DNA of 64,000 nt from Candidatus Liptonbacteria bacterium (GCA_016182095.1 JACOXY010000014.1:7234-71233), one strand, 5' to 3'. Counted from the stretch's first letter, positions 2,432 to 33,806 are shown. Notes: a model not told the origin generated them from the sequence alone. Program-made: numbers and translations.

Positions 2432-2860
2432 TTATTGCCCCTCGATTGTTATTCCCATTGATCTCGCCGTGCCTTCAATGATTTTTTCTGCCGCTTCAAT
2501 ATCGTGAGCATTTAAATCAACCATTTTTTTCTCTGCAATTTCACGCACTTGCGCCTTCGTTACCTTTCCTACTTTCGTCTTCAGGGGGTCGGCGGAACCC
2601 TTATCCAGACCGGCCGCTTTTTTTAAAAGCGCTGAAGCTGGCGGAGTTTTAAGCTTAAAAGTAAAACTCCTGTCTTCATATATGGTAATAACCGCGGGCA
2701 CCACGTCCCCCGTCATTTCTTTTGTGGAATCGTTAAATTGCTTACAGAAGTCCTGTATGTTTATGCCATGGGGCCCGAGCGCCGTTCCCACGGGAGGGGC
2801 CGGGTTCGCTTTTCCGGCCTCTAATTGCAATTTTAAAGTTGTTTTGATTTTCTTGGCCAT
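2432..2860 (-). CDS. rplK: 50S ribosomal protein L11
   Basis: MAKKI...[24 protein letters not shown] is the canonical L11 N-terminus; 142 aa. Confidence 0.95.
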
Positions 2861-2987
2861 CCCTCACTCAAGAAGGGGTATTATTTTGCCTTCTTGTTAT
2901 TCTTAGTAATCCGTTACTAATCTTTTGGGTTATATTACCACCCCAGGGGGCATTAGGGCAAGAGCTTGCCCCTTCTTGAGTGAGGGA
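2860..2987. promoter_or_regulatory. family-1 long-range inverted repeat (TCCCTCACTCAAGAAGGGG, about 90 bp spacer, CCCCTTCTTGAGTGAGGGA) abutting the rplK start codon
   Basis: perfect 19-bp arms at 2860-2878 and 2969-2987; the proximal arm carries GAGTGAGGG directly before the ATG; the spacer (minus strand) holds TTGCCC-18-TAATAT, a plausible promoter. Confidence 0.5.
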
Positions 2988-3061
2988 TAAATCCAATCAT
3001 GCAAACAAATTTATGTATTTGGTTTACTTTTTGTAGTTCCGATATGAAGCGGAAACAAAAA

Positions 3062-3619
3062 CTATATTTTTTTCACCTGCAGTGAATCAATCTCCACCGC
3101 CGTATCTCTGCCGAAAATCGGCACCATAACCTTGACCTTGCCCTTCTCCTCATCTACTTCCGCAATCTTGCCATCATAATCCTTAAAGGGGCCGTCGGTA
3201 ATCTTTACCATCTCCCCCACGCGCAATTCAACGGTCATCTTGGGCTCACCTTCTCCCATCTGACCTAAAAGAAAATCAACTTCTTCCTTAGAAAGCGGGG
3301 TGGGCACGGTTGAGTCGGCGCCAACGAATCCAGTAACGCGCGGGGTATTTCGTACTATATACCATGATTCTTCGGTCAAAATCATGTCCACCAAAACATA
3401 TCCTGGATAAATTTTCTCCTCAATAGTCTGACGCTTGCCGTTTTTAATCCTTATCTTTTTTTCTTTTGGAACCAAGACATTGAAAATTTTGTCCCCGGCC
3501 TCAAGCGATTCTATTCTTTGCGTTAAGTAGCGAACGACGGCATCTTCGTATCCGGCGTAGGTGTGAATTGCGTACCAATGCCTATTTTTGGTTGTTTTTA
3601 CTTCTTGTTGGTCTTTCAT
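3062..3619 (-). CDS. nusG: transcription termination/antitermination factor NusG
   Basis: NGN and KOW regions (WYAIHTYAGYE... / ...GEMVKITDGPFKDYDGKI); conserved secE-nusG-rplK order. Confidence 0.9.
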   Translation of the reverse strand: MKDQQEVKTTKNRHWYAIHTYAGYEDAVVRYLTQRIESLEAGDKIFNVLVPKEKKIRIKNGKRQTIEEKIYPGYVLVDMILTEESWYIVRNTPRVTGFVGADSTVPTPLSKEEVDFLLGQMGEGEPKMTVELRVGEMVKITDGPFKDYDGKIAEVDEEKGKVKVMVPIFGRDTAVEIDSLQVKKI

Positions 3620-3767
3620 GGCACATAATGCGAAATTTGCAAATTTATTATGCCTATAGCCTGTCGGCTCGGCCGATTAAGGCGAATACCGCGAAAATTG
3701 ATTCTGAACTTTCGCACCATTCGCATACGGTTTTAGTTGTTTCGCATTATATATATAATTTTGAAAA

Positions 3768-4079
3768 CTATTGCATTGGCTCTGCCGGAGGAACTGTTGT
3801 TACGTCCACATCTCCGGTTGCGCCCACTCCCCCGACTTCAAAATTCGGTAAATTAGCTGATTCAAGCGGCGCGGCATTTGTTGGGTTATTGTCGCCCTGG
3901 ACTATCATTTTCACCCCTTCTAAAAACAAAAAATCAAATACACCCAGAAATGAGGCAAGGGCGACCGAAATAACAATAACAATGCCGGTTAAACGCATCG
4001 TCTCTTCTCTTGTGGGCCAATTAACGCGCATTAATTCCTTGCGGGATTCCTGCAGGAATAATTTGATTTTGTGAAACAT
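3768..4079 (-). CDS. secE: preprotein translocase subunit SecE, with a C-terminal extension
   Basis: LQESRKELMRVNWPTREETMRLTGIVIV followed by a TM helix is SecE-like; position upstream of nusG. Confidence 0.7.
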   Translation of the reverse strand: MFHKIKLFLQESRKELMRVNWPTREETMRLTGIVIVISVALASFLGVFDFLFLEGVKMIVQGDNNPTNAAPLESANLPNFEVGGVGATGDVDVTTVPPAEPMQ

Positions 4080-4161
4080 GCTAAATTTATTTTCCGCCTT
4101 AGGCGGATCAGCTTTGGCTGAAAATTGATTAATCGATAAAATTTAACTATAAATTCTTGCA

Positions 4162-4196
4162 CCCCGTTAGATGGCGGCTCCGCCTATCTAACGGGG
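4162..4196. terminator. about 16-bp intergenic hairpin (CCCCGTTAGATGGCGG/CCGCCTATCTAACGGGG) between the gyrB 3' end and secE
   Basis: near-perfect palindrome seen in the sequence; only a weak T-run, so terminator function is uncertain. Confidence 0.35.
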
Positions 4197-4386
4197 TAAG
4201 GTTTTGTAACTGCAATTTGTTCGCGTCTACGCTCCAAATTTTAGACAAAGCCCTTAAAAAAGAGCGGAGCGCCCTTATTTGTTACATGATACCAGAAAAT
4301 CCCAAAAAAGCAACTCCCCTTCCCCCGAAGACTGCCCAACTAAAGTCCTTGAACATAAGTTAATTATACCACATTAACATTAAAAT

Positions 4387-21402: not shown

Positions 21403-21672
21403 AAAGTTCGAATCCCTTCAGGGTTCTTACATTTTATCACTTTTTGGTTTTAAAATGTACTGCAAAATAAGAGAATTTTTACTGCTACTTTTCAAAACTA
21501 CTGGCGGCCCGAGCCAGAGATTATTATAACCGTATTTTCGGATAGAGAATATATGACGAATCTCTATTCTAAGTTTTGTATTTTAACAGGACTAATCAGG
21601 CAAGAAGCTCTAAGAGCACTTATCTAAATAATATACTGCTCCTATAAATCCTCAAAAGGGCGGAGATAGAAA

Positions 21673-22119
21673 TTAGCGAACTATATTTTGGTAATAATTG
21701 TTTTCTGTGGCGTCTTGCTCTTGGATTTGGCCCTCATATTCTCCATTACAGTAAGGACTACTTGCCCACTCTGATAAACGGCAATCAATTTTAGTTGTAT
21801 TTTTAGAGCCATAATTACCTTGATTTTCCAGTAAACCACCGAAGAATATCCATAATACAAACAGTCCCAACAAAATTCCAAAAGCTAATTTCACCCACTC
21901 TTTTGTCTCTGTTAGATTCTCTTTCGTTTGATTTGAACCTCCTTTCATGTTTTCTAAAGTATTTTTTAGAGCCAATTTTATCAATTCCTTTTCTTCTGTG
22001 CTGACTTCATTATTTCTAACTCTCTTTTCTTGTTCCATGCACTCCCTACAATTCACAGAAAAGCCAAGATATTGATTGGTTCCACATTTGGGGCATTTTT
22101 TCTCCGGAATTTCTTTCAT
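21673..22119 (-). CDS. hypothetical zinc-ribbon (CPKCG...CREC) membrane-anchored protein
   Basis: CxxC...CxxC followed by a TM helix. Confidence 0.5.
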   Translation of the reverse strand: MKEIPEKKCPKCGTNQYLGFSVNCRECMEQEKRVRNNEVSTEEKELIKLALKNTLENMKGGSNQTKENLTETKEWVKLAFGILLGLFVLWIFFGGLLENQGNYGSKNTTKIDCRLSEWASSPYCNGEYEGQIQEQDATENNYYQNIVR

Positions 22120-22125
22120 GGTAGT

Positions 22126-22851
22126 TTACCTCTTATAATCTGCGTGCCAGCTGACATTTTTAATTATAACGGTTTCCAAGTCAAAATTAATTTTTGTCTC
22201 AGTGTGTTGGTCTAATCCATACGATTCATTAATACAGTTAAATTGTACTGTAGCGACCATGCCCTCATCGTCGGTCTCTTTTTCTGAGTTTTTAAAACTA
22301 TTCCACTCTCTTTTTAATTCTTCTAATGCGCTTGGATAAATACTTTCACATTTTAAATCAGGATTTACAGAATCGGCAACGAGTATTGGCTTTTCAATTT
22401 TCTTGTTATTGATTGTTGTTATTGCTGGTCTAAACGCTATTCCCTTTCCAATATTTTTTAATTTTAGTTCTTTTTTACTCTTCTCACCCACAAAGCAAAA
22501 TATAAGATTTGGGAGGTATGAGAGACGGTTGGCCGCATGAATTTCTAAATGAACTCTTCTTATTTCACCAACGCAGAAGAATAAAACGCCAACGATTCCA
22601 AAAAATCCAGAAATTATCCAGTATTGCCATCCATGCCAAGAAAAAAGTAAAAAGTAAATAGTCGCCATGCCCGAAAGGGCACCAAGAAGATAAAATTTTC
22701 CAGATAGATCCTCTTTAAAAAGGTATGCATCAATATTCTTGTAACGGTTTAAATATTTTTTAATTTTGTGCCGCGTCAAAATTGCCAAAACAATAAGTGT
22801 TAGCAGAAGTACCCAGATTAAGAAATCTATATTTAAAATAAGCTTATTCAT
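22126..22851 (-). CDS. hypothetical integral membrane protein (241 aa)
   Basis: multiple hydrophobic helices in the N-terminal half. Confidence 0.5.
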   Translation of the reverse strand: MNKLILNIDFLIWVLLLTLIVLAILTRHKIKKYLNRYKNIDAYLFKEDLSGKFYLLGALSGMATIYFLLFSWHGWQYWIISGFFGIVGVLFFCVGEIRRVHLEIHAANRLSYLPNLIFCFVGEKSKKELKLKNIGKGIAFRPAITTINNKKIEKPILVADSVNPDLKCESIYPSALEELKREWNSFKNSEKETDDEGMVATVQFNCINESYGLDQHTETKINFDLETVIIKNVSWHADYKR

Positions 22852-22870
22852 GCAGTTGCTCTTCCATGTT

Positions 22871-23086
22871 TCAACTAAAAATCCATCCCATAAAATACGC
22901 CCAAATAATTGCGGCTACAAGCAAAACAGCCCACCTATAAATTTTGGAAAATACTGCCTTTATAAACTTTCGCACAAAAGAAATAATCCAAATTATTGGC
23001 TCTATAATAAAGCGAAAAACAATGTTTAGTATAATATCCGAGAAGTCCATTGCCATAAATTTACCCCACAAGCACAAGAGTTGCAA
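22871..23086 (-). CDS. small hypothetical membrane protein (71 aa)
   Basis: two hydrophobic helices; very AT-rich; uncertain. Confidence 0.3.
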   Translation of the reverse strand: MQLLCLWGKFMAMDFSDIILNIVFRFIIEPIIWIISFVRKFIKAVFSKIYRWAVLLVAAIIWAYFMGWIFS

Positions 23087-23101
23087 TTAGTTATCCACAG
23101 A

Positions 23102-23163
23102 CTTTCGGTTTGCTTTCGGGTCTATTTGCTATAATTATAATATACCGAAAGTAAACCGAAAAT
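23102..23163. promoter_or_regulatory. candidate operator: 17-bp inverted repeat TTTCGGTTTGCTTTCGG, 26 bp, CCGAAAGTAAACCGAAA, bracketing a TATAAT -10 box 4 nt upstream of the LexA-methyltransferase gene
   Basis: one mismatch between the arms; each arm holds two CTTTCGG/CCGAAAG heptads; TATAATTATAATATA lies in the spacer. Confidence 0.5.
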
Positions 23164-23166
23164 AGA

Positions 23167-24501
23167 ATGATTACACAAAAGAAAAAAGAAATATTAGATT
23201 TCGTAAAAAGTTATTCTAAAAAGAGAGGGTATTCTCCTACCATTCCTGAAATCGCAACAAAAATTGGACGGGCTTTTGGAACCATTCACGAACATCTTCG
23301 GGGGCTAGAGGAAGATGGCTTTATCCAACTTAACAAAAATCAACGCCGAGGAATAGCGATTCTTGAGTCAACCCCGATGATTAAAATTCCACTACTTGGC
23401 ACCATAGCCGCCGGCTCACCTTTAACACTCTTTGATGTGCCACAAGAAACAATCGCTGTTCCAAAAAGCAAGGTTCACTCATCTTCGGAAGTATATGCGC
23501 TTCGTGTTGTTGGGAACAGCATGATTGATGAAAATATAAATGATGGAGATATTGTTTTAGTGCACCACCAAAAAACTGCAGAAAACGGGCAGAAGGTTGT
23601 CGCGCTTATTGACAACCACGAAGCAACGCTAAAGAAATTCTACAAGGAGAGGGGGCAAATCCGCTTACAGCCAGCAAACAAAAATATGGAGCCGCTTATT
23701 TTTAGAAATGGCCGAGATGTTTCTATACAGGGAGTAATCATTGATGTTATAAGAGAAGAAACACCGGCATCTATTTCTTTGCCAGAAGTAAAAACAGAAA
23801 TTAAACAATATAAAAAACTGCCACTTAATCAAATTATTCACGGAGATGCCGTGGAGGGGTTAAAGAAACTACCAGACGACTCTATTGATTTAGTAGTCAC
23901 CGATCCCCCATATGGAATCAGTAGAGAGCTTAATTGCAAAGGTCAAAGATTGGGAACAACGGCAAAACTGAATTTTAATTTTGGTGAGTGGGATACCTTT
24001 AATAAAGATTGGTTTGAGATTGCGTTGAAAAAAACTAGAGGCTGGATGATGACCTTTTGTGCAAAAAAAGACGTAGGCTTTTTTATTGATGGTTTAGAAA
24101 AAAATGGATTTATTGCAATTGACGTGTTGGTTTGGCAGAAACCCGACCCCATTCCTCTAAACGCGAAATCCAGATTTCTTAATGCATGGGAGGCGGTAGT
24201 GATAGGCAAAAAGCCAGGCGCCATTTGGAATAGCAAATATGAACACAACATCATTAAAGTTCAGGCCCCCAAAGGGAAGAGCAGGATTCATCCCACACAG
24301 AAACCTGTTGAACTTATAAAAAAATTAATCAATTTAACCACCAAAGAGGGTGATGTTGTATTAGACCCGTTTATGGGTAGTGGAACAACAGCCGTAGCCT
24401 GTTTAGAAACGAAAAGAAACTACGTTGGTTTTGAAATATCAGAGGAGTATAGGAACCAATCCCTAAAAAGAATAAAAGCACTGCCAAAAGAGTTATTTTA
24501 A
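23167..24501 (+). CDS. fusion protein: complete LexA-type repressor (HTH plus S24 self-cleaving peptidase) joined to a beta-class N6-adenine/N4-cytosine DNA methyltransferase
   Basis: residues 1-198 align with LexA (cleavage site TIAAG|SP, Ser in VVGNSM, Lys in ATLKKF); residues about 205-444 carry DPPY (DLVVTDPPYGI) followed by FMGSGTTAVA. Confidence 0.8.
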   Translation: MITQKKKEILDFVKSYSKKRGYSPTIPEIATKIGRAFGTIHEHLRGLEEDGFIQLNKNQRRGIAILESTPMIKIPLLGTIAAGSPLTLFDVPQETIAVPKSKVHSSSEVYALRVVGNSMIDENINDGDIVLVHHQKTAENGQKVVALIDNHEATLKKFYKERGQIRLQPANKNMEPLIFRNGRDVSIQGVIIDVIREETPASISLPEVKTEIKQYKKLPLNQIIHGDAVEGLKKLPDDSIDLVVTDPPYGISRELNCKGQRLGTTAKLNFNFGEWDTFNKDWFEIALKKTRGWMMTFCAKKDVGFFIDGLEKNGFIAIDVLVWQKPDPIPLNAKSRFLNAWEAVVIGKKPGAIWNSKYEHNIIKVQAPKGKSRIHPTQKPVELIKKLINLTTKEGDVVLDPFMGSGTTAVACLETKRNYVGFEISEEYRNQSLKRIKALPKELF

Positions 24502-25475
24502 TTCTCTGGATACACAAGCATTGCTTTAATGCTGCGCAAATCCTTTAAATTAAGAGAGGTTTGTTTCCGACGAATCTCTTTTTTTAGCGACAAGAATCTT
24601 CTCCTTTTTTCGCGTAACTTTTTTCTGAGAAGTTTAACTACTTTCTTGGCATCAGCACTGTATATTTTTTTGACTAGGAATTCATTTTTATCAACACTGG
24701 CAAGTATTATGCTTTTATCTACAAGGTACTTATTCAAAACTTCGTTTGAAATATCTTGGAAGCTCCACGTGAATCCCTTTGCAACTTTATATTCGTACAT
24801 GTTGCCATGATTATCTTCCGCATCATGCTTCGCTTGTTCCGACTGAACTTTATGGTTTAGTTTCAGCGCTACTAAAACCTCCCAAAATTTATTACTTGTA
24901 AGAATTCCTTTTGTTCCGGTTGCTGTTTCAATTTTGCTAGCAATTTTAATAATGCGCGTAATCCAAGATAAGTAATGCCCATTATAATTTTTGATAGTTT
25001 GTCTCGTGAGATTCAGGTTATTTTCAATTTGCCTGGAGCTCACGTTGATCATTTTCCTGCTATTTCTTATTTTTTTAGTTGCTTGTGCTAGATAATCTGA
25101 CATGACTTGCCCGGGCACTTCGTAATACCAATCAAATTTCGGGAAAGAAACATTAACGTCTTGTATGTGCGCGAAAATAACAGCTTCGGCGTTACTAAGT
25201 TTAGTTATGGTGGTATTGGAAAAGTCGTTAAAAGTCCATGAATGATTAGAGCTACTCTCTTTGTAGTGCTTATATTCAAACTCACCCCCTGCTGAATTTT
25301 TGGCATCACGTGAGCCAGAGTGGCCGGGAATAAGAGTGTGGTCTAGAGCGTCTGCAATAAGCACCTCAAATATTTTACTGTTCGTAATAATATCGGTAAC
25401 ACCAAAAGTTTTATAAAAATCAAACTGGATCTGCTTTAACTGCTCAATAAAATCATTTATACTATTAGTATTCAT
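24498..25475 (-). CDS. putative single-chain restriction endonuclease with two tandem PD-(D/E)XK-like domains (internal duplication) and a basic C-terminal tail
   Basis: repeated blocks KIFEVLIADALDH...RDAKNSAGGEFEYK and KFWEVLVALKLNH...HDAEDNHGNMYEYK; start may be Met1 (25493) or Met7 (25475); wedged between two methyltransferase genes. Confidence 0.55.
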   Translation of the reverse strand: MNTNSINDFIEQLKQIQFDFYKTFGVTDIITNSKIFEVLIADALDHTLIPGHSGSRDAKNSAGGEFEYKHYKESSSNHSWTFNDFSNTTITKLSNAEAVIFAHIQDVNVSFPKFDWYYEVPGQVMSDYLAQATKKIRNSRKMINVSSRQIENNLNLTRQTIKNYNGHYLSWITRIIKIASKIETATGTKGILTSNKFWEVLVALKLNHKVQSEQAKHDAEDNHGNMYEYKVAKGFTWSFQDISNEVLNKYLVDKSIILASVDKNEFLVKKIYSADAKKVVKLLRKKLREKRRRFLSLKKEIRRKQTSLNLKDLRSIKAMLVYPEN

Positions 25476-25477
25476 CG

Positions 25478-26317
25478 ATGAAAAGAATAACACTAAAAAG
25501 AAAATTTAGCACTGCGGCAGAAAGCTCCTTGATCTTCGGGGACGCTTTAAATATTTTGCGATCTATTCCAAGTCACTCCATTGACCACTGCATAACTGAC
25601 CCCCCGTATAATATTTCCGGATACGACTATAAAAAAAAGATTGGATGGCTCCAATCAAATAGCGCCTGGGTAGAGGAGAAAAACTTTTCAAAGATTGATG
25701 CTCGGTGGGATAAGTTTTCTGATAACGATTATCTAGCTTTTACCAAAAGCTGGATCTCTGAAGTAGCCAGAGTTCTCAAGCCAAATGGGAACATTATAAT
25801 TTTTGGTTCGTATCACAATATTTATCAAATCGGCTCTATTCTACAGGATATTGATCGTAAGCTAATTAACTCTGTTGTATGGTATAAACGAAACGCATTT
25901 CCAAATGTAACACAAAGGATGCTTTGTGAGAGCACAGAGCATATAATTTGGGCTGTAAATGAAACCAAAAAAAATGCCAAGAACTGGACATTTAATTATA
26001 AAGCACTTAAAGAACTAAACGGCGGAGTACAAATGAGAAATATGTGGGATATACCATCAACTCCGGTTTCCGAAAAAAGGCACGGCAAGCATCCTTCTCA
26101 AAAACCGATTGAACTCATAAGCCGCCTTGTTCTTGGCGGGACCAACAAGAAAGATATTATCATTGATCCATTTATGGGTAGCGGCACTCTTCCGGTTGTG
26201 GCGCTAGTAAACGAAAGAGGATTTGTAGGAATTGACAACGATAAACAATACTGCAACCTGGCGCTAAAAAGAGTAGTGGATACTAGAAATCATCCAAAAC
26301 AAAACAAGGTTACTTAG
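25478..26317 (+). CDS. DNA methyltransferase (beta-class N6A/N4C)
   Basis: DHCITDPPYNI (motif IV) near the N-terminus and FMGSGTLPVVAL (motif I) near the C-terminus. Confidence 0.85.
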   Translation: MKRITLKRKFSTAAESSLIFGDALNILRSIPSHSIDHCITDPPYNISGYDYKKKIGWLQSNSAWVEEKNFSKIDARWDKFSDNDYLAFTKSWISEVARVLKPNGNIIIFGSYHNIYQIGSILQDIDRKLINSVVWYKRNAFPNVTQRMLCESTEHIIWAVNETKKNAKNWTFNYKALKELNGGVQMRNMWDIPSTPVSEKRHGKHPSQKPIELISRLVLGGTNKKDIIIDPFMGSGTLPVVALVNERGFVGIDNDKQYCNLALKRVVDTRNHPKQNKVT

Positions 26318-26635
26318 AATTTTGAGCAAAAAAGCAATAATCGGTTCGAACTCGCCGCCAAATTCATAAAATCCATAAAACAAGCCGAAATTATCGCTTT
26401 GCAAGAAAATCCCGAGCAGAGTCGGGATTTTCTAAAAAAGATTGGTTCGAACTTCCGTTTGAGCGGGCGGGAATTGTTTTGCGACTTCAAAAATCCCTTT
26501 CAAATCCTATGCGAGCGGCGCGTCTCGCGCCGCGAGCTTGCCTCTTCAAATTTGCATTTTCCCAATTGGCGTCGCGTAATAAATCAAAGATTTACACGCG
26601 ACAGCAATGTAAAATTTGCAAAGCAAATTTGTACG

Positions 26636-26726
26636 TGGCGGAGGCGGAAGGATTCGAACCTTCGATACCCTTGCGGGTATAACAGTTTTCAAGACTGTTT
26701 GTTTCAACCACTCACACACGCCTCCA
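26636..26726 (-). tRNA. tRNA-Ser (anticodon UGA), long variable arm, CCA encoded
   Basis: GGAGGCG acceptor, anticodon loop CUUGAAA, variable arm AUACCCGCAAGGGUAUC, T-loop UUCGAAU, ends CGCCUCC-G-CCA. Confidence 0.85.
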
Positions 26727-26885
26727 GAAACTACAAAGCTTTATACAGTTTTTCTACCTCATAGTCAATCTTTCCTGGATTTATTTTTTCTTTTATTATC
26801 ATGCATGTATCTTATCACTAAAATATTAAATTGGGTAACTTTCTGGGTGCGTGATTTTTTCCTATTTTTGCCGTAAGATAAGCAC

Positions 26886-27272
26886 ATGGAGATCCAAAAG
26901 AAAAAGACAAAACTAAATCGCGGTATGTTCAAGCGCGCCATTTTCATCTTTGCGGGACTTTTGCTTTCAGCCTTTATACTAAATGCGATTATGTTAACTG
27001 CTGGATATAAAACCGGCTTTTTTCATCGTTGGGCAGAAGAACAATATTTTGGGAGAGTCACAGAAATCAGCGAGAATGGTTTTCTAATTGTAGACGAAAA
27101 AAATAATGAAAAGCCGGTTTTAATTAAAAAAGACACGCGGATTAGAATGGGGAGAGAATTCGCCACCAAGGAAGACCTGCTTGTAAATAATTATGTGATT
27201 GTAGTTGGGTCGCAAAATAATCAGGGACAAGTTGAAGCTAGAGTTATCCGCATTTTTAACGATAGCCGATAA
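26886..27272 (+). CDS. hypothetical membrane-anchored protein (128 aa)
   Basis: N-terminal TM helix; clean ORF. Confidence 0.45.
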   Translation: MEIQKKKTKLNRGMFKRAIFIFAGLLLSAFILNAIMLTAGYKTGFFHRWAEEQYFGRVTEISENGFLIVDEKNNEKPVLIKKDTRIRMGREFATKEDLLVNNYVIVVGSQNNQGQVEARVIRIFNDSR

Positions 27273-27276
27273 AACA

Positions 27277-27867
27277 GTGAATTGGAAAAGTAAAAAAGCC
27301 TTGAGATATCTGCCGGGACTAATACTGCCATTGCTTTTTGTCGGTTTTACCGTATATTTTTTTGTCTTCTCAACCCCAGAACGCATAATTGAGATGGTCG
27401 GGGTAAACAACGCCTACATGCTCATCTTTGTGCTTGCTTTTTTGGGCGGCCTTACGACATTCAGCGGACTTCCATATCACTTGCTACTCATTACATTAGC
27501 CACCGGTGGCTTGAAGCCATCTCTGCTCGGAATATCGGCGGCTGCCGGCGTTATGCTTGGAGATTCCACGTCTTATTATGTTGGCTATCATGGCGGCGCT
27601 ATCGCTCCACAAGGCATACAAAAATTTTTTAAGCAGGCCTATTTTTTTAGCTCTCGGCACCAGATAATGCTGCCGCTCTTTTGTTTGGCATATGGTTCAT
27701 TAGTGCCGTTTTCCAACGACTTTATCACTATTTCTGCCGGTATAGCACGATACCCTTTTTGGCGAGTGATGATACCGCTTGGAATAGGTAATTTGATCTT
27801 TAATATTTCATTAGCATATTTTTCACCGAATGCTTACAATTTTTTATTCAATACAATTTTTAACTAA
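27277..27867 (+). CDS. DedA/VTT-family membrane protein
   Basis: GLPYHLLLITLATGG and GDSTSYYVGY motifs; start uncertain (a GTG at 27277 is proposed to avoid overlapping the upstream ORF). Confidence 0.6.
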   Translation: MNWKSKKALRYLPGLILPLLFVGFTVYFFVFSTPERIIEMVGVNNAYMLIFVLAFLGGLTTFSGLPYHLLLITLATGGLKPSLLGISAAAGVMLGDSTSYYVGYHGGAIAPQGIQKFFKQAYFFSSRHQIMLPLFCLAYGSLVPFSNDFITISAGIARYPFWRVMIPLGIGNLIFNISLAYFSPNAYNFLFNTIFN

Positions 27868-28045
27868 TTTTTAATTTATAATTTTTGGTTTATAATAGAA
27901 TTATGCCCAGTAATACAACTTACAGTATACTTGGCAAATTGTAACAAATCATTAGTAATGAACTTGAATAAATATTTATCAACTGATAAAGCTAGTTGAT
28001 TTTTATTTTTTAATAAAAATCACGCTGTAAGTTGATATACTAGGT

Positions 28046-28816
28046 ATGGCGCCTATAGAAAAGGAGGGTTATTGGACTCCATTAGAAAAACAGGTTAGAG
28101 ACTATATATTCCTGCCAATTACTTGGCCATTTAAGTTTATTCCGCATGCGGCCAACATTTTGACGATGATCGGATTCGGCATACTTTTTTATGCCATTTA
28201 CGATTTCTATATATATGAAAGCTATTCCCGCCAGATTTGGCTTTTAACCGCCGCCTGGCTCACGGATTTATTTGATGGACCGATAGCCAGAAACAACAAT
28301 GATGTAACCGCCTTCGGCACAGCCGCCGACCATATCCGCGACTACTTCATAAGTTTCTGGATGCTCACCCTCGCCTTCTTTATAACGGCAGATTCTCCGC
28401 AGTTTTGGCCGGTTTACTGGATTCTTGTTTTTACGATCTTGGGGCTTTTGGGCGTCATAGCGGGCACGTTGCTCTTCCAGAAAGAAAAACGCGGCGAGCG
28501 GCCATGGGGCGGATATCTGGATTTTTTCCGGGAATTTTTATTGAAAGATCTGGTCACGTCGGTAACGGCAAGAATACACACGGTAATCATGGCAATCGGC
28601 GGAGTTTTCTATATCGCGGGTGCCGCCTTGGGAGATGTTTACGCGAAAACAGGGGTGGTTATATTGATAATACAGCTTTTTGTTTTGGGCTTTTATAACC
28701 ACGAAATCCATGAGGCGCGCTACGAAGACAGGGCGCATAAAATAAGAAATATTCTCCAGGAAAAAATCCGCGAGTTGGAAGAAAAACTTAAAAAACACGT
28801 AAAAGTTGACGGCTAA
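28046..28816 (+). CDS. CDP-alcohol phosphatidyltransferase family protein with a C-terminal extension
   Basis: D(x2)DG(x2)AR...G(x3)D(x3)D motif: DLFDGPIARNNNDVTAFGTAADHIRD. Confidence 0.7.
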   Translation: MAPIEKEGYWTPLEKQVRDYIFLPITWPFKFIPHAANILTMIGFGILFYAIYDFYIYESYSRQIWLLTAAWLTDLFDGPIARNNNDVTAFGTAADHIRDYFISFWMLTLAFFITADSPQFWPVYWILVFTILGLLGVIAGTLLFQKEKRGERPWGGYLDFFREFLLKDLVTSVTARIHTVIMAIGGVFYIAGAALGDVYAKTGVVILIIQLFVLGFYNHEIHEARYEDRAHKIRNILQEKIRELEEKLKKHVKVDG

Positions 28817-29782: not shown

Positions 29783-30090
29783 CCCGTTAGAGATAGGAGG
29801 CGCAACGCCTCCGTAATTTGTTTGCGACTATTTGAAATCAGGTTATTTGAAATATTTTTGCATCCCATTAAATATAGTTTGGTTATTTCTAACGGGATTC
29901 ATAATAAAATTATCATAGCATTAATTATGCGGCTTCCGCAACATATCTGGAGCTAGCGCATCATAAAACCAAAAGAAAAATAACAAGAGCGGCAAGGGAT
30001 AAAATCAGCCAGCCAAGGGTTATGAGCAGTAAATAAACCGCTTGTTTTCAAATGTGGTCAATTTTGGAAAAAGTGCGAACCCACTACGAG

Positions 30091-30203
30091 CAGAACCCTG
30101 ACAAAACCTAACCGCTCGGGCGGCGCGGAATTCCCCCCTTGAACCCCCCTTCCGCGCCGCCCTCGCGGGAAGTTCGTTTTTGCCCGCTTCGCGGGCACGC
30201 CGC
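30091..30203. repeat. left arm of an about 113-bp near-perfect inverted repeat bounding the R-M/ImmA island
   Basis: differs from the reverse complement of 33153-33265 at about 3 positions; GC-rich with internal palindromes. Confidence 0.85.
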
Positions 30204-30601
30204 TATTTCTTCGGGAAAAGATACTCAACCGCCACTCTCAACATCAAGTAAATCTGTGTTATTGTAGCAGTCACCAACAAACGGAAACTCCATTCTTCAA
30301 GAACAAATCCAAGCCATCCTGTTGCTTGAAGAAAAGCAAACGCGAAAATTATAAACGATTCGATACCGAGAAACCAGAGCAAGACCTTAAGCGTCAATTT
30401 CTTCAACTTAATATCTTGCTCAAGATCTACATTCTTTAGTTTTTCTCTCTTTGCTAATTCCTCTTTAATTCTAACCGGCTTTTGTTCAGAATACGAAAAT
30501 TCACTAGACGACTTTAATAGTTCCGCAACAGATTCAAAAGAAAGTGCTGGAGTTTCTTGCACTTCGGGCTCGTTTTTTGTCTTTTCTTTTTTATCAGTCA
30601 T
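30203..30601 (-). CDS. hypothetical small membrane protein (132 aa; charged N-terminus, 2 TM)
   Basis: last gene of the island operon; overlaps the end of the left inverted repeat. Confidence 0.45.
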   Translation of the reverse strand: MTDKKEKTKNEPEVQETPALSFESVAELLKSSSEFSYSEQKPVRIKEELAKREKLKNVDLEQDIKLKKLTLKVLLWFLGIESFIIFAFAFLQATGWLGFVLEEWSFRLLVTATITQIYLMLRVAVEYLFPKK

Positions 30602-30605
30602 ATCG

Positions 30606-31133
30606 TTAGTTAACGAGCCCCAACCTGCTCAACCTGATACTCATTGCCTCGACCGAAACATTGAAGACTTCTGCACAATCTTCGACATCTCTTAATTTTT
30701 CCCACGCTTTCTTAACGAGCTCCGCTGGCATAATTAAAGACGCCGCAAAGTTATTTGCTTCGGTTTCTAGTTTTGTTGAAGTGGCTTCATCTCTCCGATA
30801 AAGCATTCCCGCTCTATCGAGAACATTCTCTTCGTCAACGAAAAACTCTTTCTTTATTTCCTCTTGATGCAAAAAATAGTGTCCAAGTTCGTGAGCAATG
30901 GTAAAGTATTGTCTGGTAGGCGATTTTGTATTGTTAATGAGAATAGAAAAATTATTTTCTTCCTGGAAAAATCCAATAACCCCCGATACTTTATCGGGCA
31001 ACTTGCCTGTCCGGAATATTTTCAAATCACTTTTATCCTTCTGAATATTTTCATAGGGAAAAGGCGAAAGCCCCTCGGGGTTATACTTTTTTGAAATTTC
31101 TTCAGCGTAATTACAAATTTCCTGTATAGTCAT
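30606..31133 (-). CDS. ImmA/IrrE-family metallo-endopeptidase (COG2856, DUF955)
   Basis: YFTIAHELGHYFLH HEXXH motif and ETEANNFAASLIMP block. Confidence 0.8.
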   Translation of the reverse strand: MTIQEICNYAEEISKKYNPEGLSPFPYENIQKDKSDLKIFRTGKLPDKVSGVIGFFQEENNFSILINNTKSPTRQYFTIAHELGHYFLHQEEIKKEFFVDEENVLDRAGMLYRRDEATSTKLETEANNFAASLIMPAELVKKAWEKLRDVEDCAEVFNVSVEAMSIRLSRLGLVN

Positions 31134-31140
31134 ATTGTTG

Positions 31141-31857
31141 CTATTTGATTTTACGCTTTATTATTTCGACCAAGTTCTCTGGTTTGACTAGAAATGTCTT
31201 GAACTCATCAAAATTTTTATCAGTAATACCAATTTGAAACTCGATACCTCCTCGGTGCTGATGGCTTCTCATGGGGTGTTTTTTGACTTCTTTATCTGAA
31301 AGAACCCAATAATAAATTTTGTCTATCCACACACCAACGAAAACAAAAACATCTACAATATCCAGTTTAAGCTGTTGAAAATTCATCCAATATGGCTCAT
31401 CGGACTCAAAACTTAATGCTTTGGTTTCTAATCCGCCTCTAATTTTTGTGTTGATTGCTCGTGATGCTTTTACTTCAATCTTGATTATTTTACTTCCGTT
31501 TTCAAGATAGAGATCGTAGTCGCCGGAATACTTTTTATCAATCTGTTTTGATGGTTTCTTAAACCCTGAATCCACATCTATCAAATGCTGTTGCGCCCAA
31601 ATTTCACCAAAAACACGAGGTGAAATGTTGTAAAGATTTAGATATGGGTTCGCATTAACATACGCATCTCTTAATGCCTCATATTCTTTGAAAGTGATGA
31701 CTTTCTTATCAAGCAAATACATTAAACGATACTCGTACTCATTAAAGGGATAAATAGATTTTAGCCCGCTCAAATGGGCCAAAAGAATTTTTCGATCTTC
31801 TTGCGGTAATTCTTTGACCCACGCTTCAAGTTTTTTATCTAAATTTTTCTTATCCAT
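31141..31857 (-). CDS. putative type II restriction endonuclease (PD-(D/E)XK)
   Basis: GDYDLYLENGSKIIKIEVKAS is a D...EVK catalytic core; directly downstream of the methyltransferase. Confidence 0.55.
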   Translation of the reverse strand: MDKKNLDKKLEAWVKELPQEDRKILLAHLSGLKSIYPFNEYEYRLMYLLDKKVITFKEYEALRDAYVNANPYLNLYNISPRVFGEIWAQQHLIDVDSGFKKPSKQIDKKYSGDYDLYLENGSKIIKIEVKASRAINTKIRGGLETKALSFESDEPYWMNFQQLKLDIVDVFVFVGVWIDKIYYWVLSDKEVKKHPMRSHQHRGGIEFQIGITDKNFDEFKTFLVKPENLVEIIKRKIK

Positions 31858-31860
31858 AGA

Positions 31861-32805
31861 TTAAACTAAATCAAGAAGCGTTGGCGCGCCCAACAATTCT
31901 TCATCTTTTACTAAAATTTGGCCGTCTTTTAGAACTTTTAGCCGCCCCCACCCCATCTCGCCTGTGCGCCGGTGGTGAAGTAAACGTGCAGCCATAATCT
32001 TACAATAATTCGGATTTATATCCATTGTGTAGCATTTTCTTTTGCTCAACTCTGCCTGCAATAAGGTTGAACCGGAATGACCAAAAAAATCTACAACAAG
32101 ATCGTCAGTTTTGCTACTGGCCTCGATTATCCGTTTCGCGGATTTTAGAGGTTTCTGTGCAAAACACCCCTCAATATTCTCATGCATCAAATAAAAAACT
32201 TGTTGAATGTCATGCCAAACATTACCCGCGCGAATTGTTAGCGATTTACTCCTTTCAAAATTTTCAGTCATTTTTCCGTTCACTTTTTTGTAATATCCTT
32301 TTGTCTTTTTAGGTATATCTGTATATTCAGCCTGGACATCAAAAGCTGGCTCTCCCTTTATGTAGTAAAGCAGTTCTTGACGAATAGCCATCCAGTTTTT
32401 TTGTGTTCCATACCCTCTTTGATTTCTCATGGTAATAAAGCTCCGAATCTTCACCGGCTTATTCCTCATCATAAGAATAAAATCGGGCAATGGTTGTAAA
32501 CCACTCCTAACATCTGCCCCAAGCCAAACATAAAATGAAGAATTGTTATGAAGTATGTCTAGTGTATTATCAACCCACTTTTCGCTCCAATTCATATATT
32601 GATCTAGTGGCAAATTTCCGAATTCGTCGTTGATGTCCACATTGTAAGGCGGGTCTTGCACCGCTAACACGGCTTTTTCTTTTTCCATCAATTTTTCAAC
32701 ATCTTCTTTTTTGGAAACATCAAGACAACCAACGCGATGACCGCTAACTGGGTCTTCCCAAATCATTCCGTATTCAAAATTTGGCAAGCTGTTAGTTTTT
32801 GCCAT
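31861..32805 (-). CDS. DNA methyltransferase (beta-class N6A/N4C)
   Basis: VQDPPYNVDIN (motif IV) and FFGHSGSTLLQAE (motif I); start uncertain (the ORF extends to 32841 and overlaps the HTH gene). Confidence 0.8.
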   Translation of the reverse strand: MAKTNSLPNFEYGMIWEDPVSGHRVGCLDVSKKEDVEKLMEKEKAVLAVQDPPYNVDINDEFGNLPLDQYMNWSEKWVDNTLDILHNNSSFYVWLGADVRSGLQPLPDFILMMRNKPVKIRSFITMRNQRGYGTQKNWMAIRQELLYYIKGEPAFDVQAEYTDIPKKTKGYYKKVNGKMTENFERSKSLTIRAGNVWHDIQQVFYLMHENIEGCFAQKPLKSAKRIIEASSKTDDLVVDFFGHSGSTLLQAELSKRKCYTMDINPNYCKIMAARLLHHRRTGEMGWGRLKVLKDGQILVKDEELLGAPTLLDLV

Positions 32806-33013
32806 TGTTGAAAAATTCTTTTGGGCTAATTTCGAGTGCATGGGCTAATTTTTGGATATTTTTTAAGGCCGGATTTCTTATTCCTCGCTCAATGCCACTT
32901 ATGTAGGTTCGATGTAGTCCAGTAATTTTTGATAATTGACCTTGCGAAATTGCTCGTTTTTCTCTCAATTCTCGCAACCGCTTGCCAAATTTTGATAATT
33001 CTTGATTCTTCAT
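32792..33013 (-). CDS. XRE-family HTH transcriptional regulator (controller-protein position of the R-M operon)
   Basis: LRELREKRAISQGQLSKITGLHRTYISGIERG is a classic XRE helix-turn-helix; 73 aa. Confidence 0.8.
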   Translation of the reverse strand: MKNQELSKFGKRLRELREKRAISQGQLSKITGLHRTYISGIERGIRNPALKNIQKLAHALEISPKEFFNNGKN

Positions 33014-33152
33014 ACATAAACACGATATCCACTTGAAATCATTTTATCATTGTGAATAAGATAAGTATATAGTAGAATATAAGTCACTAGGGAGTATAAT
33101 GATGTTGCGCGCGCACTGGGAGGGTGGGGCAAGCGCAACTCCAACTTTTCTA

Positions 33153-33265
33153 GCGGCGCGCCCGCGAAGCGGGCAAAAACGAACTTCCCGCGAGGGCGGC
33201 GCGGAAGGGGGGTTTAAGGGGGGAATTCCGCGCCGCCCGAGCGGTTAGGTTTCGTCAGGGTTCTG
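33153..33265. repeat. right arm of the about 113-bp inverted repeat bounding the R-M/ImmA island
   Basis: reverse complement of 30091-30203 with about 3 mismatches. Confidence 0.85.
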
Positions 33266-33278
33266 ACTTTTTCAAATG

Positions 33279-33349
33279 TGGACCTAGCGAGAATCGAACT
33301 CGCGCCTTCTGCATGCCATGCAGATATTCTACCACTGAATTATAGGCCC
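33279..33349 (-). tRNA. tRNA-Ala (anticodon GGC), with the G3:U70 identity pair
   Basis: GGGCCUA acceptor pairing UAGGUCC with G3-U70; anticodon loop AUGGCAU; T-loop UUCGAUU; CCA not encoded. Confidence 0.85.
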
Positions 33350-33419
33350 GCTTGAACTTTATAACATTTTCATTGTAATCTTGCAACAAAAATGTTATAA
33401 AGTTAATCTTAAATAAGGG

Positions 33420-33494
33420 GCCCTCGTAGTTCAATGGACAGAACAATTCCGTCCTAAGGAAAAAATGGGAGTTCGATTCTCTCCGAGGGCACCA
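33420..33494 (+). tRNA. tRNA-Arg (anticodon CCU), CCA encoded
   Basis: GCCCUCG acceptor, D-stem GUUC/GAAC, anticodon loop GUCCUAA, T-arm GGGAG-UUCGAUU-CUCUC, 3' CGAGGGC-A-CCA. Confidence 0.85.
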
Positions 33495-33543
33495 CGTAGG
33501 AAATTGACTGAAACTAACGCGCCGCACTCGTCCCGAATAAAGC

Positions 33544-33632
33544 GGTGGGGTGGCTGAGCCCGGTTGAAGGCGCCACACTCGAAATGTGGTATGCTCGAAA
33601 GGGCATCGTGAGTTCAAATCTCACCCCCACCG
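33544..33632 (+). tRNA. tRNA-Ser (anticodon CGA), long variable arm
   Basis: GGUGGGG acceptor, anticodon stem CCACA/UGUGG with loop CUCGAAA, variable hairpin UAUGCUCGAAAGGGCAUC, T-arm GUGAG-UUCAAAU-CUCAC, 3' CCCCACC-G. Confidence 0.85.
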
Positions 33633-33652
33633 CTTTGCGCGGGATAAAAAAT

Positions 33653-33701
33653 GCGGTTGGGGAGAAATCCCCTCGGAGGTTCTAATCCTCCACCCTCCGC
33701 A
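33653..33701 (+). other. tRNA-like minihelix (acceptor-like stem plus T-arm GGAGG-UUCUAAU-CCUCC) lacking D and anticodon arms; likely a diverged partial duplicate of a tRNA 3' end
   Basis: GCGGUUGGGGAGAAAUCCCCUCGGAGGUUCUAAUCCUCCACCCUCCGCA has the same architecture as the tRNA-Ser 3' end, about 20 nt after the tRNA. Confidence 0.3.
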
Positions 33702-33806
33702 AATGTTTTTTGCTATATTTTTTGGTACCGCAAGATAGAAAAAATAACAATTGAGAAAAATTTGGCGGGAATTAGTTATAAGTGATATAATGAACATATA
33801 AGTATT

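Follow-up and report, generated by a model that had tools for sequence, protein, structure and literature searches.

Introduction

Transposon-like restriction-modification (R-M) units, in which long inverted repeats are accompanied by a short direct repeat and no transposase is encoded, were described by Furuta, Abe and Kobayashi in 2010 (PMC2853133). Here we analyse a locus of this kind in Candidatus Liptonbacteria, in a 64,000-nucleotide stretch of DNA (GCA_016182095.1 JACOXY010000014.1:7234-71233) that we refer to as the window. Between two long inverted arms, an operon at this locus encodes a Type II R-M system with a controller (C) protein, followed by an M78 (ImmA/IrrE-type) zinc peptidase and a small protein read as having two transmembrane (TM) helices. 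We propose that positions 30045-33281 are probably an integrase-less, horizontally exchanged cassette lying 3' of tRNA-Ala(GGC). The island as such belongs to the class described in 2010. What appears to be new is the frame of arms, which is tRNA- or tmRNA-associated, led by a gene of the XRE family, filled with varied cargo and spread across phyla of the Candidate Phyla Radiation (CPR), together with the M78/2-TM pair, which appears behind three types of R-M system.

CPR bacteria have tiny genomes with few recognised mobile elements, and the exchange of defence genes among them is poorly understood. Several defence operons, including DISARM, are regulated by CapH/CapP-like pairs of an XRE-family repressor and an M78 peptidase. 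The repressors ImmR, DdrO and CapH are cleaved in their C-terminal domains, and in CapP a C-terminal GAF-like domain with a cysteine-switch loop forms a groove that binds single-stranded DNA. Canonical capH and capP genes lie together, upstream of the operon that they regulate and on the opposite strand.

Results

A cassette framed by inverted arms beside tRNA-Ala

A repeat search of the window places the inverted arms at 30091-30205 and 33151-33265. Each is 115 nt long; they are 97% complementary, with 3 mismatches, and 2945 nt apart. A prior interpretation made from the DNA alone, the sequence-only reading, had described 113-bp inverted repeats with about three mismatches bounding an island next to tRNA-Ala, and both the repeats and the bounded island are borne out. 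The right repeat does adjoin the tRNA 3' end as it had stated, across a gap of 12-13 nt, not 14. A 20-mer derived from the arm occurs at only 2 sites in the 64 kb, compared with 0.01 expected, and an nhmmer profile built from the arm family detected no third copy in the window.

The arms are GC-rich within AT-rich DNA and fold as a series of hairpins (z = -4.85 for the sense strand including the leader described below). By homology to other arm loci, the left arm reaches outward to 30058 and the right arm extends as far as the tRNA. The left arm holds a hairpin with a 13-bp stem and a C6-N5-C6 loop, a GCCCGC hairpin and, pointing inward, a terminator-like hairpin with a T-run (30150-30170); its inner edge contains the stop codon of the last cassette gene. 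The right arm also carries an inward-pointing terminator-like hairpin (33206-33186), and its outer end, which matches the "B-type" arm ends of loci L029 and L039, has a 16-nt deletion between CAGAACCC repeats. An Rfam scan of 29800-33800 (E <= 1) returned tRNAs only, and neither the arms nor the leader match a family.

Outside the arms, the longest word common to both flanks of the cassette is the direct repeat TTTTCAAATGTGG, the complement of CCACATTTGAAAA, which comprises the tRNA-Ala 3' end and its flank. The cassette operon lies directly downstream of tRNA-Ala(GGC) and is co-directional with it. On the far side of this tRNA gene, at 33355-33404, a 24-nt near-perfect palindrome (AACTTTATAACATTTTCATTGTAA / TTGCAACAAAAATGTTATAAAGTT) sits between the divergent tRNA-Ala and tRNA-Arg genes. 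Coordinates are collected in Table 1.

Table 1. Features of the cassette in the window, and anchors of cassettes with related arms
Feature	Position or locus	Strand	Basis or remarks
Direct repeat TTTTCAAATGTGG, 13 bp, distal copy	30045-30057	.	exact 13-mer, 2 copies in window
Distal (left) arm	30058-30205	+	outer segment 30058-30090 (TCAATTTTGGAAAAAGTGCGAACCCACTACGAG) and 115-nt inverted repeat 30091-30205
Membrane protein read as 2-TM, 132 aa	30203-30601	-	partner gene of M78 peptidase
M78 (ImmA/IrrE-type) zinc peptidase, 175 aa	30606-31133	-	peptidase domain only; Pfam Peptidase_M78 2.4e-22
Type II restriction endonuclease (R), 238 aa	31141-31857	-	N-terminal helical domain and PD-(D/E)XK core (D115, E128, K130)
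Beta-class N6_N4 DNA methyltransferase (M), 326 aa	31861-32841	-	Pfam N6_N4_Mtase 1.1e-27
Controller (C) protein, XRE family, 73 aa	32792-33013	-	helix-turn-helix (HTH) only; Pfam HTH_3 3e-17
Candidate promoter and operator	33041-33087	-	from sequence reading
Conserved leader module	33089-33139	-	hairpin 33104-33139 and ACTCCCT motif (33089-33095)
Proximal (right) arm	33151-33277	-	115-nt repeat 33151-33265 and short variant outer end TTTGAAAAAGT abutting tRNA
Direct repeat TTTTCAAATGTGG, 13 bp, proximal copy	33269-33281	.	overlaps last bases of tRNA-Ala
tRNA-Ala(GGC), insertion landmark	33278-33349	-	ARAGORN; Rfam tRNA 68.8 bits
Anchor tRNA-Ala(ggc)	window		
Anchor tRNA-Ala(tgc)	L023, L026, L027		
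Anchor tRNA-Gly	L006		
Anchor tRNA-Leu	L028		
Anchor tRNA 3' fragment	L051		
Anchor tmRNA	L012, L037		

The arm family in other CPR genomes

The sequence-only reading had proposed a search for the repeat in other genomes as a check on mobility. We searched one genome per species with the 13-bp-stem hairpin and metagenomes with a 29-nt core, and the arms do turn up again in further CPR genomes, where they enclose different cargo. At 92-100% identity the arm sequence is present in the Saccharibacteria metagenome-assembled genomes (MAGs) L006 and L012, in the Azambacteria MAGs L008 and L023 and in 15 metagenome contigs, groundwater among their sources. The core has no match in viral contigs. An Azonexus match (L013) has a loop unrelated to the arm and was set aside as a chance match to the stem pattern; other actinobacterial and proteobacterial matches, whose spans differ from the arm's 43 nt and which have no inverted partner, were taken as chance with their sequences unread.

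Inverted arm pairs 2.2-2.8 kb apart are found in L006, L008, L012, L023, L027 and L028. The recurrent layout begins at the 3' end of a tRNA or tmRNA and continues with an arm, sometimes a leader hairpin, an XRE gene of 72-74 aa and varied cargo, closing with the inverted arm (anchors in Table 1). At the distal junction, about a dozen loci read (G/T)GTGG followed directly by TCAATTTTGG. Flanking the L023 cassette is the 10-bp direct repeat CCACCAAAAA, corresponding to the 3' end of tRNA-Ala(tgc).

Cargo among these cassettes includes a membrane-anchored trypsin-like protease, secreted peptidoglycan-binding proteins, HEPN and RadC/JAB proteins, GMP synthase and Type III R-M genes, and many cargo proteins match no known family. 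In their make-up the cassettes are mosaic, with heads and tails that share 77-90% identity between phyla around differing middles, and no cargo is conserved as strongly as the arms. This pattern indicates that cassettes are exchanged horizontally and that the arm sequence itself is under selection.

Several individual loci add detail. In L029 (2879-5051), a B-type arm pair surrounds a controller-like XRE gene, whose product is 49% identical to that of the window, and a full-length GMP synthase gene, so the cassette frame can carry housekeeping-type cargo. L035 (3-2857) encodes a controller-like XRE, a RadC/JAB protein, a 320-aa protein without known family and, convergently, a methyltransferase-looking open reading frame (ORF) without a Pfam match; here, too, R-M-like genes may be paired with a metallopeptidase-like gene. 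At L031 (351-1270), an IS110-family transposase gene (DEDD_Tnp_IS110, 7e-25) adjoins an arm interrupted in the loop of the 13-bp-stem hairpin, which suggests that this hairpin is an IS110 target. In the commonest cassette XRE type, of 72-73 aa (L006, L008, L012, L026, L028, L033, L036 and L038), the promoter, TTGACT-N17-TATAAT, stops 2 nt short of the ATG, which implies a leaderless mRNA; the palindrome ATATCTAAAnTTTGGATAT over its -35 element is a likely operator.

The restriction-modification module

Five closely packed ORFs, all on the minus strand, fill the space between the window arms. The C gene overlaps M; M and R are separated by 3 nt, R and M78 by 7 nt, and M78 and the membrane-protein gene by 4 nt. 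The identities assigned in the sequence-only reading (XRE controller, beta-class methyltransferase, PD-(D/E)XK nuclease, M78 peptidase and small membrane protein) hold up against profile and structure matches combined with reading of the sequence.

The first gene encodes a controller protein by both profile matches (PADLOC Control_protein 5e-21, versus 8e-12 for capH) and matches to PDB entries (C.AhdI 5.6e-17, C.BclI 6.7e-15). The methyltransferase match spans profile positions 3-219 of 221, and the protein is also recovered as PADLOC MTase_II (2e-29). Its DPPY motif at residue 63 and its S-adenosylmethionine (AdoMet) motif DFFGHSGST near the C-terminus give the beta order; its true start may be a later ATG, at 32805 or 32766. 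An AlphaFold2 (AF2) model of the endonuclease, with a predicted local distance difference test (pLDDT) score of 83.6, matches PD-(D/E)XK enzymes; the invariant residues include D115, E128 and K130. Since this endonuclease family is 66-92% identical over many CPR lineages, its sequences are an indication of probable frequent transfer. A (D/S)PPY methyltransferase with its AdoMet motif, an adjacent nuclease and a small HTH controller with a controller box (C-box) were thus all found, as in Type II R-M systems.

Upstream of the C gene, which starts at 33013, the sequence-only reading had suggested looking for a controller-box palindrome, and a candidate is present. The C-box GTGACTTATATTC (33075-33087) lies within a 36-bp dyad, GTGA-N28-TCAC (33052-33087), has a central TATA and agrees at 12/13 positions with the left operator of Esp1396I (GTGACTTATAGTC; PMC2504287). 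A candidate extended -10 element, TGATAAAAT, follows at 33041-33049. The second (right) operator box is non-canonical. Because a controller protein and a C-box occur together, what is known of the family leads us to expect that the controller autoregulates the operon through the predicted box upstream of its own gene. A scan for sigma-70-like promoters returned as many matches as shuffled sequence and was uninformative.

Between the proximal arm and the XRE promoter, upstream of the latter, lies a conserved leader module whose hairpin has a GTTGCGC/GCGCAAC stem and a C-rich loop, TTGCCCCACCCTCCCAGTGCGC. The loop recurs elsewhere with compensated stems: GTTGCCC/GGGCAAC in L006, L008 and L036, GGGTAAT in L028, and CCTTTTCC/GGAAAAGG in L035. 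The hairpin module is also found in L033 and is absent in L012, L026 and L038. These compensated stems were read directly; a covariation count was dropped, as MAFFT misaligned the L035 stem.

The M78 peptidase and its membrane-protein neighbour

The peptidase, identical to MBI2035742.1 of Candidatus Liptonbacteria, has its HELGH motif at residue 81. It matches PADLOC capP at 9e-30 over profile positions 6-153 of 242 only, and in the PDB it matches CapP (7t5t, 2e-6) and IrrE (6e-4). Its 132-aa neighbour has no Pfam, NCBIfam or PADLOC family. Two TM helices were read from the sequence and an alignment of homologues, not predicted by a tool; a Kyte-Doolittle scan flags one hydrophobic stretch, in windows starting at residues 68-84. 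The family of this protein comprises 223 representative clusters, all of 70-220 aa, with no fusions and no annotation.

About 320 homologues of the peptidase score at E <= 1e-10; such homologues are common in CPR and occur in a few other phyla. A homologue of the 2-TM protein (43-66% identical) is encoded 4-12 nt downstream of M78 in every readable neighbourhood except the decayed L050. In four contexts (L044/45, L046/47, L048/49 and L053-55) the pair stands alone among housekeeping genes, and no XRE or R-M gene was called next to it in L044-L049 or L053-L055. Elsewhere it follows other restriction systems. In L051, an M78 gene (74% identical) and its TM partner lie intact behind Type III mod and res genes, in a cassette that lies after a tRNA fragment; the arms of this cassette have diverged, and no more than a remnant of its XRE gene is left. 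In L059, the pair lies behind an N6_N4 methyltransferase and an HNH nuclease, with no XRE adjacent to the peptidase. The closer relatives of the window pair are those that sit behind restriction systems. L050 (1-1300) encodes relatives of the window R and M78 proteins (86% and 91% protein identity) with a TM gene truncated after about 64 codons; this copy has no arm and a different genomic context, and looks decayed or differently embedded.

Because the 2-TM gene is the constant downstream neighbour of M78 across contexts, the peptidase is coupled to the membrane protein, at the level of translation as well, and not to the XRE, and the two genes form a self-standing module. The same comparison points to its recurrent recruitment behind R-M systems of three types. 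With low confidence, we suggest that the pair could have an accessory role of an abortive-infection or addiction type, and that the peptidase would have the membrane protein, not the controller, as its target.

The sequence-only reading had taken a different view, namely that the XRE protein and the ImmA/IrrE-like peptidase form a damage-responsive pair bracketing the R-M genes, with the damage-activated peptidase cleaving the XRE protein and so changing R-M expression. The two genes do share one operon, their products do score on the PADLOC profiles capH and capP, and CapH/CapP-like pairs do control other defence operons. We nevertheless consider this circuit unlikely. M78 has the 2-TM gene as its constant neighbour, and the pair is found with no XRE at all or, in L051, with a remnant of one; XRE-first cassettes exist without M78 (L006, L008, L012, L023, L028, L029 and L035). 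The window XRE is a 73-aa C.AhdI-like controller with no cleavable C-terminal domain, and the peptidase has no GAF/cysteine-switch sensor. The layout is also unlike the divergent capH/capP arrangement, with XRE as gene 1 and the peptidase as gene 4 on the same strand. Nothing that we found favours cleavage of the controller by the M78 peptidase: because its partner is the 2-TM protein, the XRE is HTH-only and a GAF sensor is missing, repressor-cleavage wiring is unsupported. That an XRE and an ImmA-like gene share an operon is not in itself enough to make a circuit of repressor cleavage.

The same reading had joined this supposed pair to a LexA-methyltransferase fusion elsewhere in the window, and had seen in both restriction systems a pattern of damage wiring. 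The fusion (LexA_DNA_bind, Peptidase_S24 and N6_N4_Mtase; 23167-24501) is real. Because the XRE/M78 wiring is unsupported, the fusion is left as the sole basis for the pattern. It opens a second R-M cluster (23167-26725) that also contains a 331-aa ORF without a Pfam family (24498-25493, minus strand), a second methyltransferase (25478-26317) and the relic of a large serine recombinase C-terminus (26318-26569; 33% identity over 87 aa to the enzyme in L012), which converges on tRNA-Ser(tga) at 26636-26725. This cluster is thus also tRNA-adjacent and has an integrase relic; no long flanking repeats were found around it in 21500-28200.

How the cassette may move

The frame that we propose consists of two GC-rich inverted arms of about 115-148 nt, a 13-bp direct repeat into which the tRNA 3' end falls, and XRE as the first gene. 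ORF inspection and Pfam, NCBIfam and PADLOC scans found no recombinase between the window arms. The arms are probably the ends at which the element recombines, and they would best fit palindromic attP-type half sites on which a trans-acting site-specific recombinase works, possibly one of the large serine type. Inverted ends would then stem from the palindromic attP, and the direct repeat from a short common core. Alternatively, the arms may be homology arms for cassette exchange by homologous recombination. They may also insulate the cassette from outside transcription, for instance from the tRNA, which is plausible because each carries an inward-pointing hairpin with a T-run. On this model, the empty site would have the junction GGTCCACATTTGAAAACAAGCGG, and the excised circle would read from the outer end of the distal arm through CCACATTTGAAAA into AGTCAGAACCC. 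By-eye comparison with integron attC core sites and dif gave no fit to the arms in polarity or sequence.

Two other loci bear on the setting. In L012, a 524-aa large serine recombinase (Resolvase, Recombinase and Zn_ribbon_recom; 2628-4269) separates the tmRNA from the cassette; its own 3' end and the tmRNA flank make up a perfect inverted repeat of 68 nt around it. In the related Liptonbacteria MAG L058 (5795-6130), whose DUF5671 neighbour is 77% identical to that of the window, tRNA-Ala(tgc) is followed by 4-5 tandem tRNA-Ala 3' halves; two unrelated genes lie between these halves and DUF5671, and no arms were seen. Because this interval holds tandem tRNA-Ala 3' halves and different genes, the stretch from tRNA-Ala to DUF5671 is an integration hotspot, and the tRNA halves in L058 are scars of repeated site-specific integration. 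Its other content and these scars led us to reject L058 as a clean empty site.

Several points weigh against a mobile cassette as we describe it. We found no empty site, no excised circle and no second insertion of the exact cassette, and movement is an indirect conclusion; the exact DUF5671 neighbour is not on record elsewhere, and its 100% variant is present only on short contigs that end in the arm. No enzyme is tied to the arms: a serine recombinase is nearby in one of about 15 loci, and its repeats differ from the arms. Known attP half sites are about 25 bp long, far exceeded by arms of 115-165 nt, and we know of no att half sites of such length. The cassettes in L036 and L029 are not tRNA-adjacent, and clear direct repeats are present in two of the four loci in which both flanks can be read. 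Part of the left direct-repeat copy in the window (AAATGTGG; the copy ends in (A)AATGTGG) also precedes arms in other loci, and that part may belong to the element and not to a target duplication. MAG taxonomy and short contigs limit the certainty of the cross-phylum spread. Within the operon, C-M-R order in one apparent transcription unit is atypical, the classical arrangement being a C-R unit with a separately expressed M, and the function given to the M78/2-TM pair is deduced throughout.

Could the island instead be what is left, after decay and loss of the integrase, of a larger prophage or integrative element that had integrated at a tRNA, with the arms as internal leftovers? The 3' ends of tRNAs are classic integrase targets, and the tandem tRNA-Ala halves in L058, the serine recombinase relic 7 kb from the island, and the armless L050 copy with its R and M78 genes and truncated TM gene would all suit such a history. 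We judge it improbable all the same, as the compact arm-to-arm layout, spanning 2.3-3.2 kb, is seen again in many genomes, where both arms directly adjoin host genes on their outer side. The island also contains no phage genes and has no matches in viral contigs. No M78 relatives were found in viral contigs either, and phage records gave distant ImmA-like matches only (31-36% identity).

It is very unlikely that the arms are inversion substrates rather than mobility sites, with phase-variable inversion of the whole cassette switching it on or off with respect to the tRNA promoter. Long near-perfect inverted repeats do bracket the segment, reaching 100% identity in L006, L008 and L012, and contigs of short-read assemblies do break inside the arms. 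Yet the XRE end faces the tRNA or tmRNA in all six loci in which that gene is visible, a promoter region of the cassette's own adjoins XRE, and both arms carry terminator-like hairpins that point inward; inversion would also leave the cross-phylum conservation and the direct repeats unexplained.

Assembler errors can yield contig-scale inverted repeats, and a fold-back, named in the sequence-only reading as what would undo it, or a chimeric assembly is nonetheless excluded for practical purposes: 3 positions distinguish the two arms, the bases specific to the left arm recur, together with the flank/arm junction, at 100% identity in independent Logan assemblies of four sequencing runs (L040-L043, L056 and L057), and the same arms appear in unrelated assemblies from different studies.

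Discussion

We propose that the locus in the window is one member of a broader set. Tentatively, and in the knowledge that this wider claim may well fail, we suggest that it represents an undescribed family of integrase-less cassettes in CPR/Patescibacteria that would home to tRNA and tmRNA 3' flanks, always led by an XRE gene, and would shuttle defence, surface-protein and housekeeping cargo between phyla. As part of the same tentative proposal, the M78/2-TM pair would be a new accessory module associated with at least three restriction types, for example as an abortive-infection backup. Our literature searches, whose incomplete coverage makes them no proof of novelty, found no description of the cross-phylum arm frame or of an R-M-linked M78/2-TM pair. 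If the proposal is right, the arms and the XRE-first frame provide a searchable handle on a route of gene exchange across CPR, together with a catalogue of the genes being traded. A new restriction-associated accessory function also has a testable candidate in the peptidase/membrane-protein pair, which recurs behind restriction systems unrelated to one another.

Among known systems, the units of the 2010 study are closest: they share with the window island a compact R-M unit that contains neither transposase nor integrase, terminal inverted repeats that are long, imperfect and confined to the unit, and a short outer direct repeat. The arms described here differ in being longer (115-148 nt versus 26-65) and strongly structured, and in belonging to a cross-phylum family that also brackets non-R-M cargo. 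Here, the presumed insertion point is the 3' end of a tRNA, which the 13-bp repeat overlaps.

The R-M module resembles the C-controlled systems AhdI, Esp1396I, BclI and PvuII in its C.AhdI/C.BclI-like protein and in the TATA-centred C-box upstream of the C gene. It departs from them in its single C-M-R operon, its non-canonical second box and the apparent co-transcription of M78 and the TM gene. With CapH/CapP, ImmR/ImmA and DdrO/IrrE the locus has in common an M78 HEXXH domain, a defence context and an XRE-family HTH protein. In contrast to those pairs, it has no GAF/cysteine switch, its HTH-only protein is 73 aa long, the two genes are neither adjacent nor divergent, and the partner of the peptidase is a 2-TM protein.

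Finally, the cassette follows the logic of cis-mobilisable elements, the integrase-less satellites of tRNA-integrating elements, and of serine-integrase attP/attB sites in its location at tRNA and tmRNA 3' ends, its direct repeats of tRNA ends and the absence of an integrase inside; the tandem accretion in L012 next to a recombinase gene and the inverted ends, as would come from a palindromic attP, fit the same logic. The serine-integrase features that we observe are inverted ends and 10-13-bp cores, with a recombinase beside the L012 cassette only and a relic at 26318-26569 in the window. Those elements are normally bounded by direct att repeats, with attP half sites of about 25 bp, whereas the cassette described here is bounded by long inverted arms.

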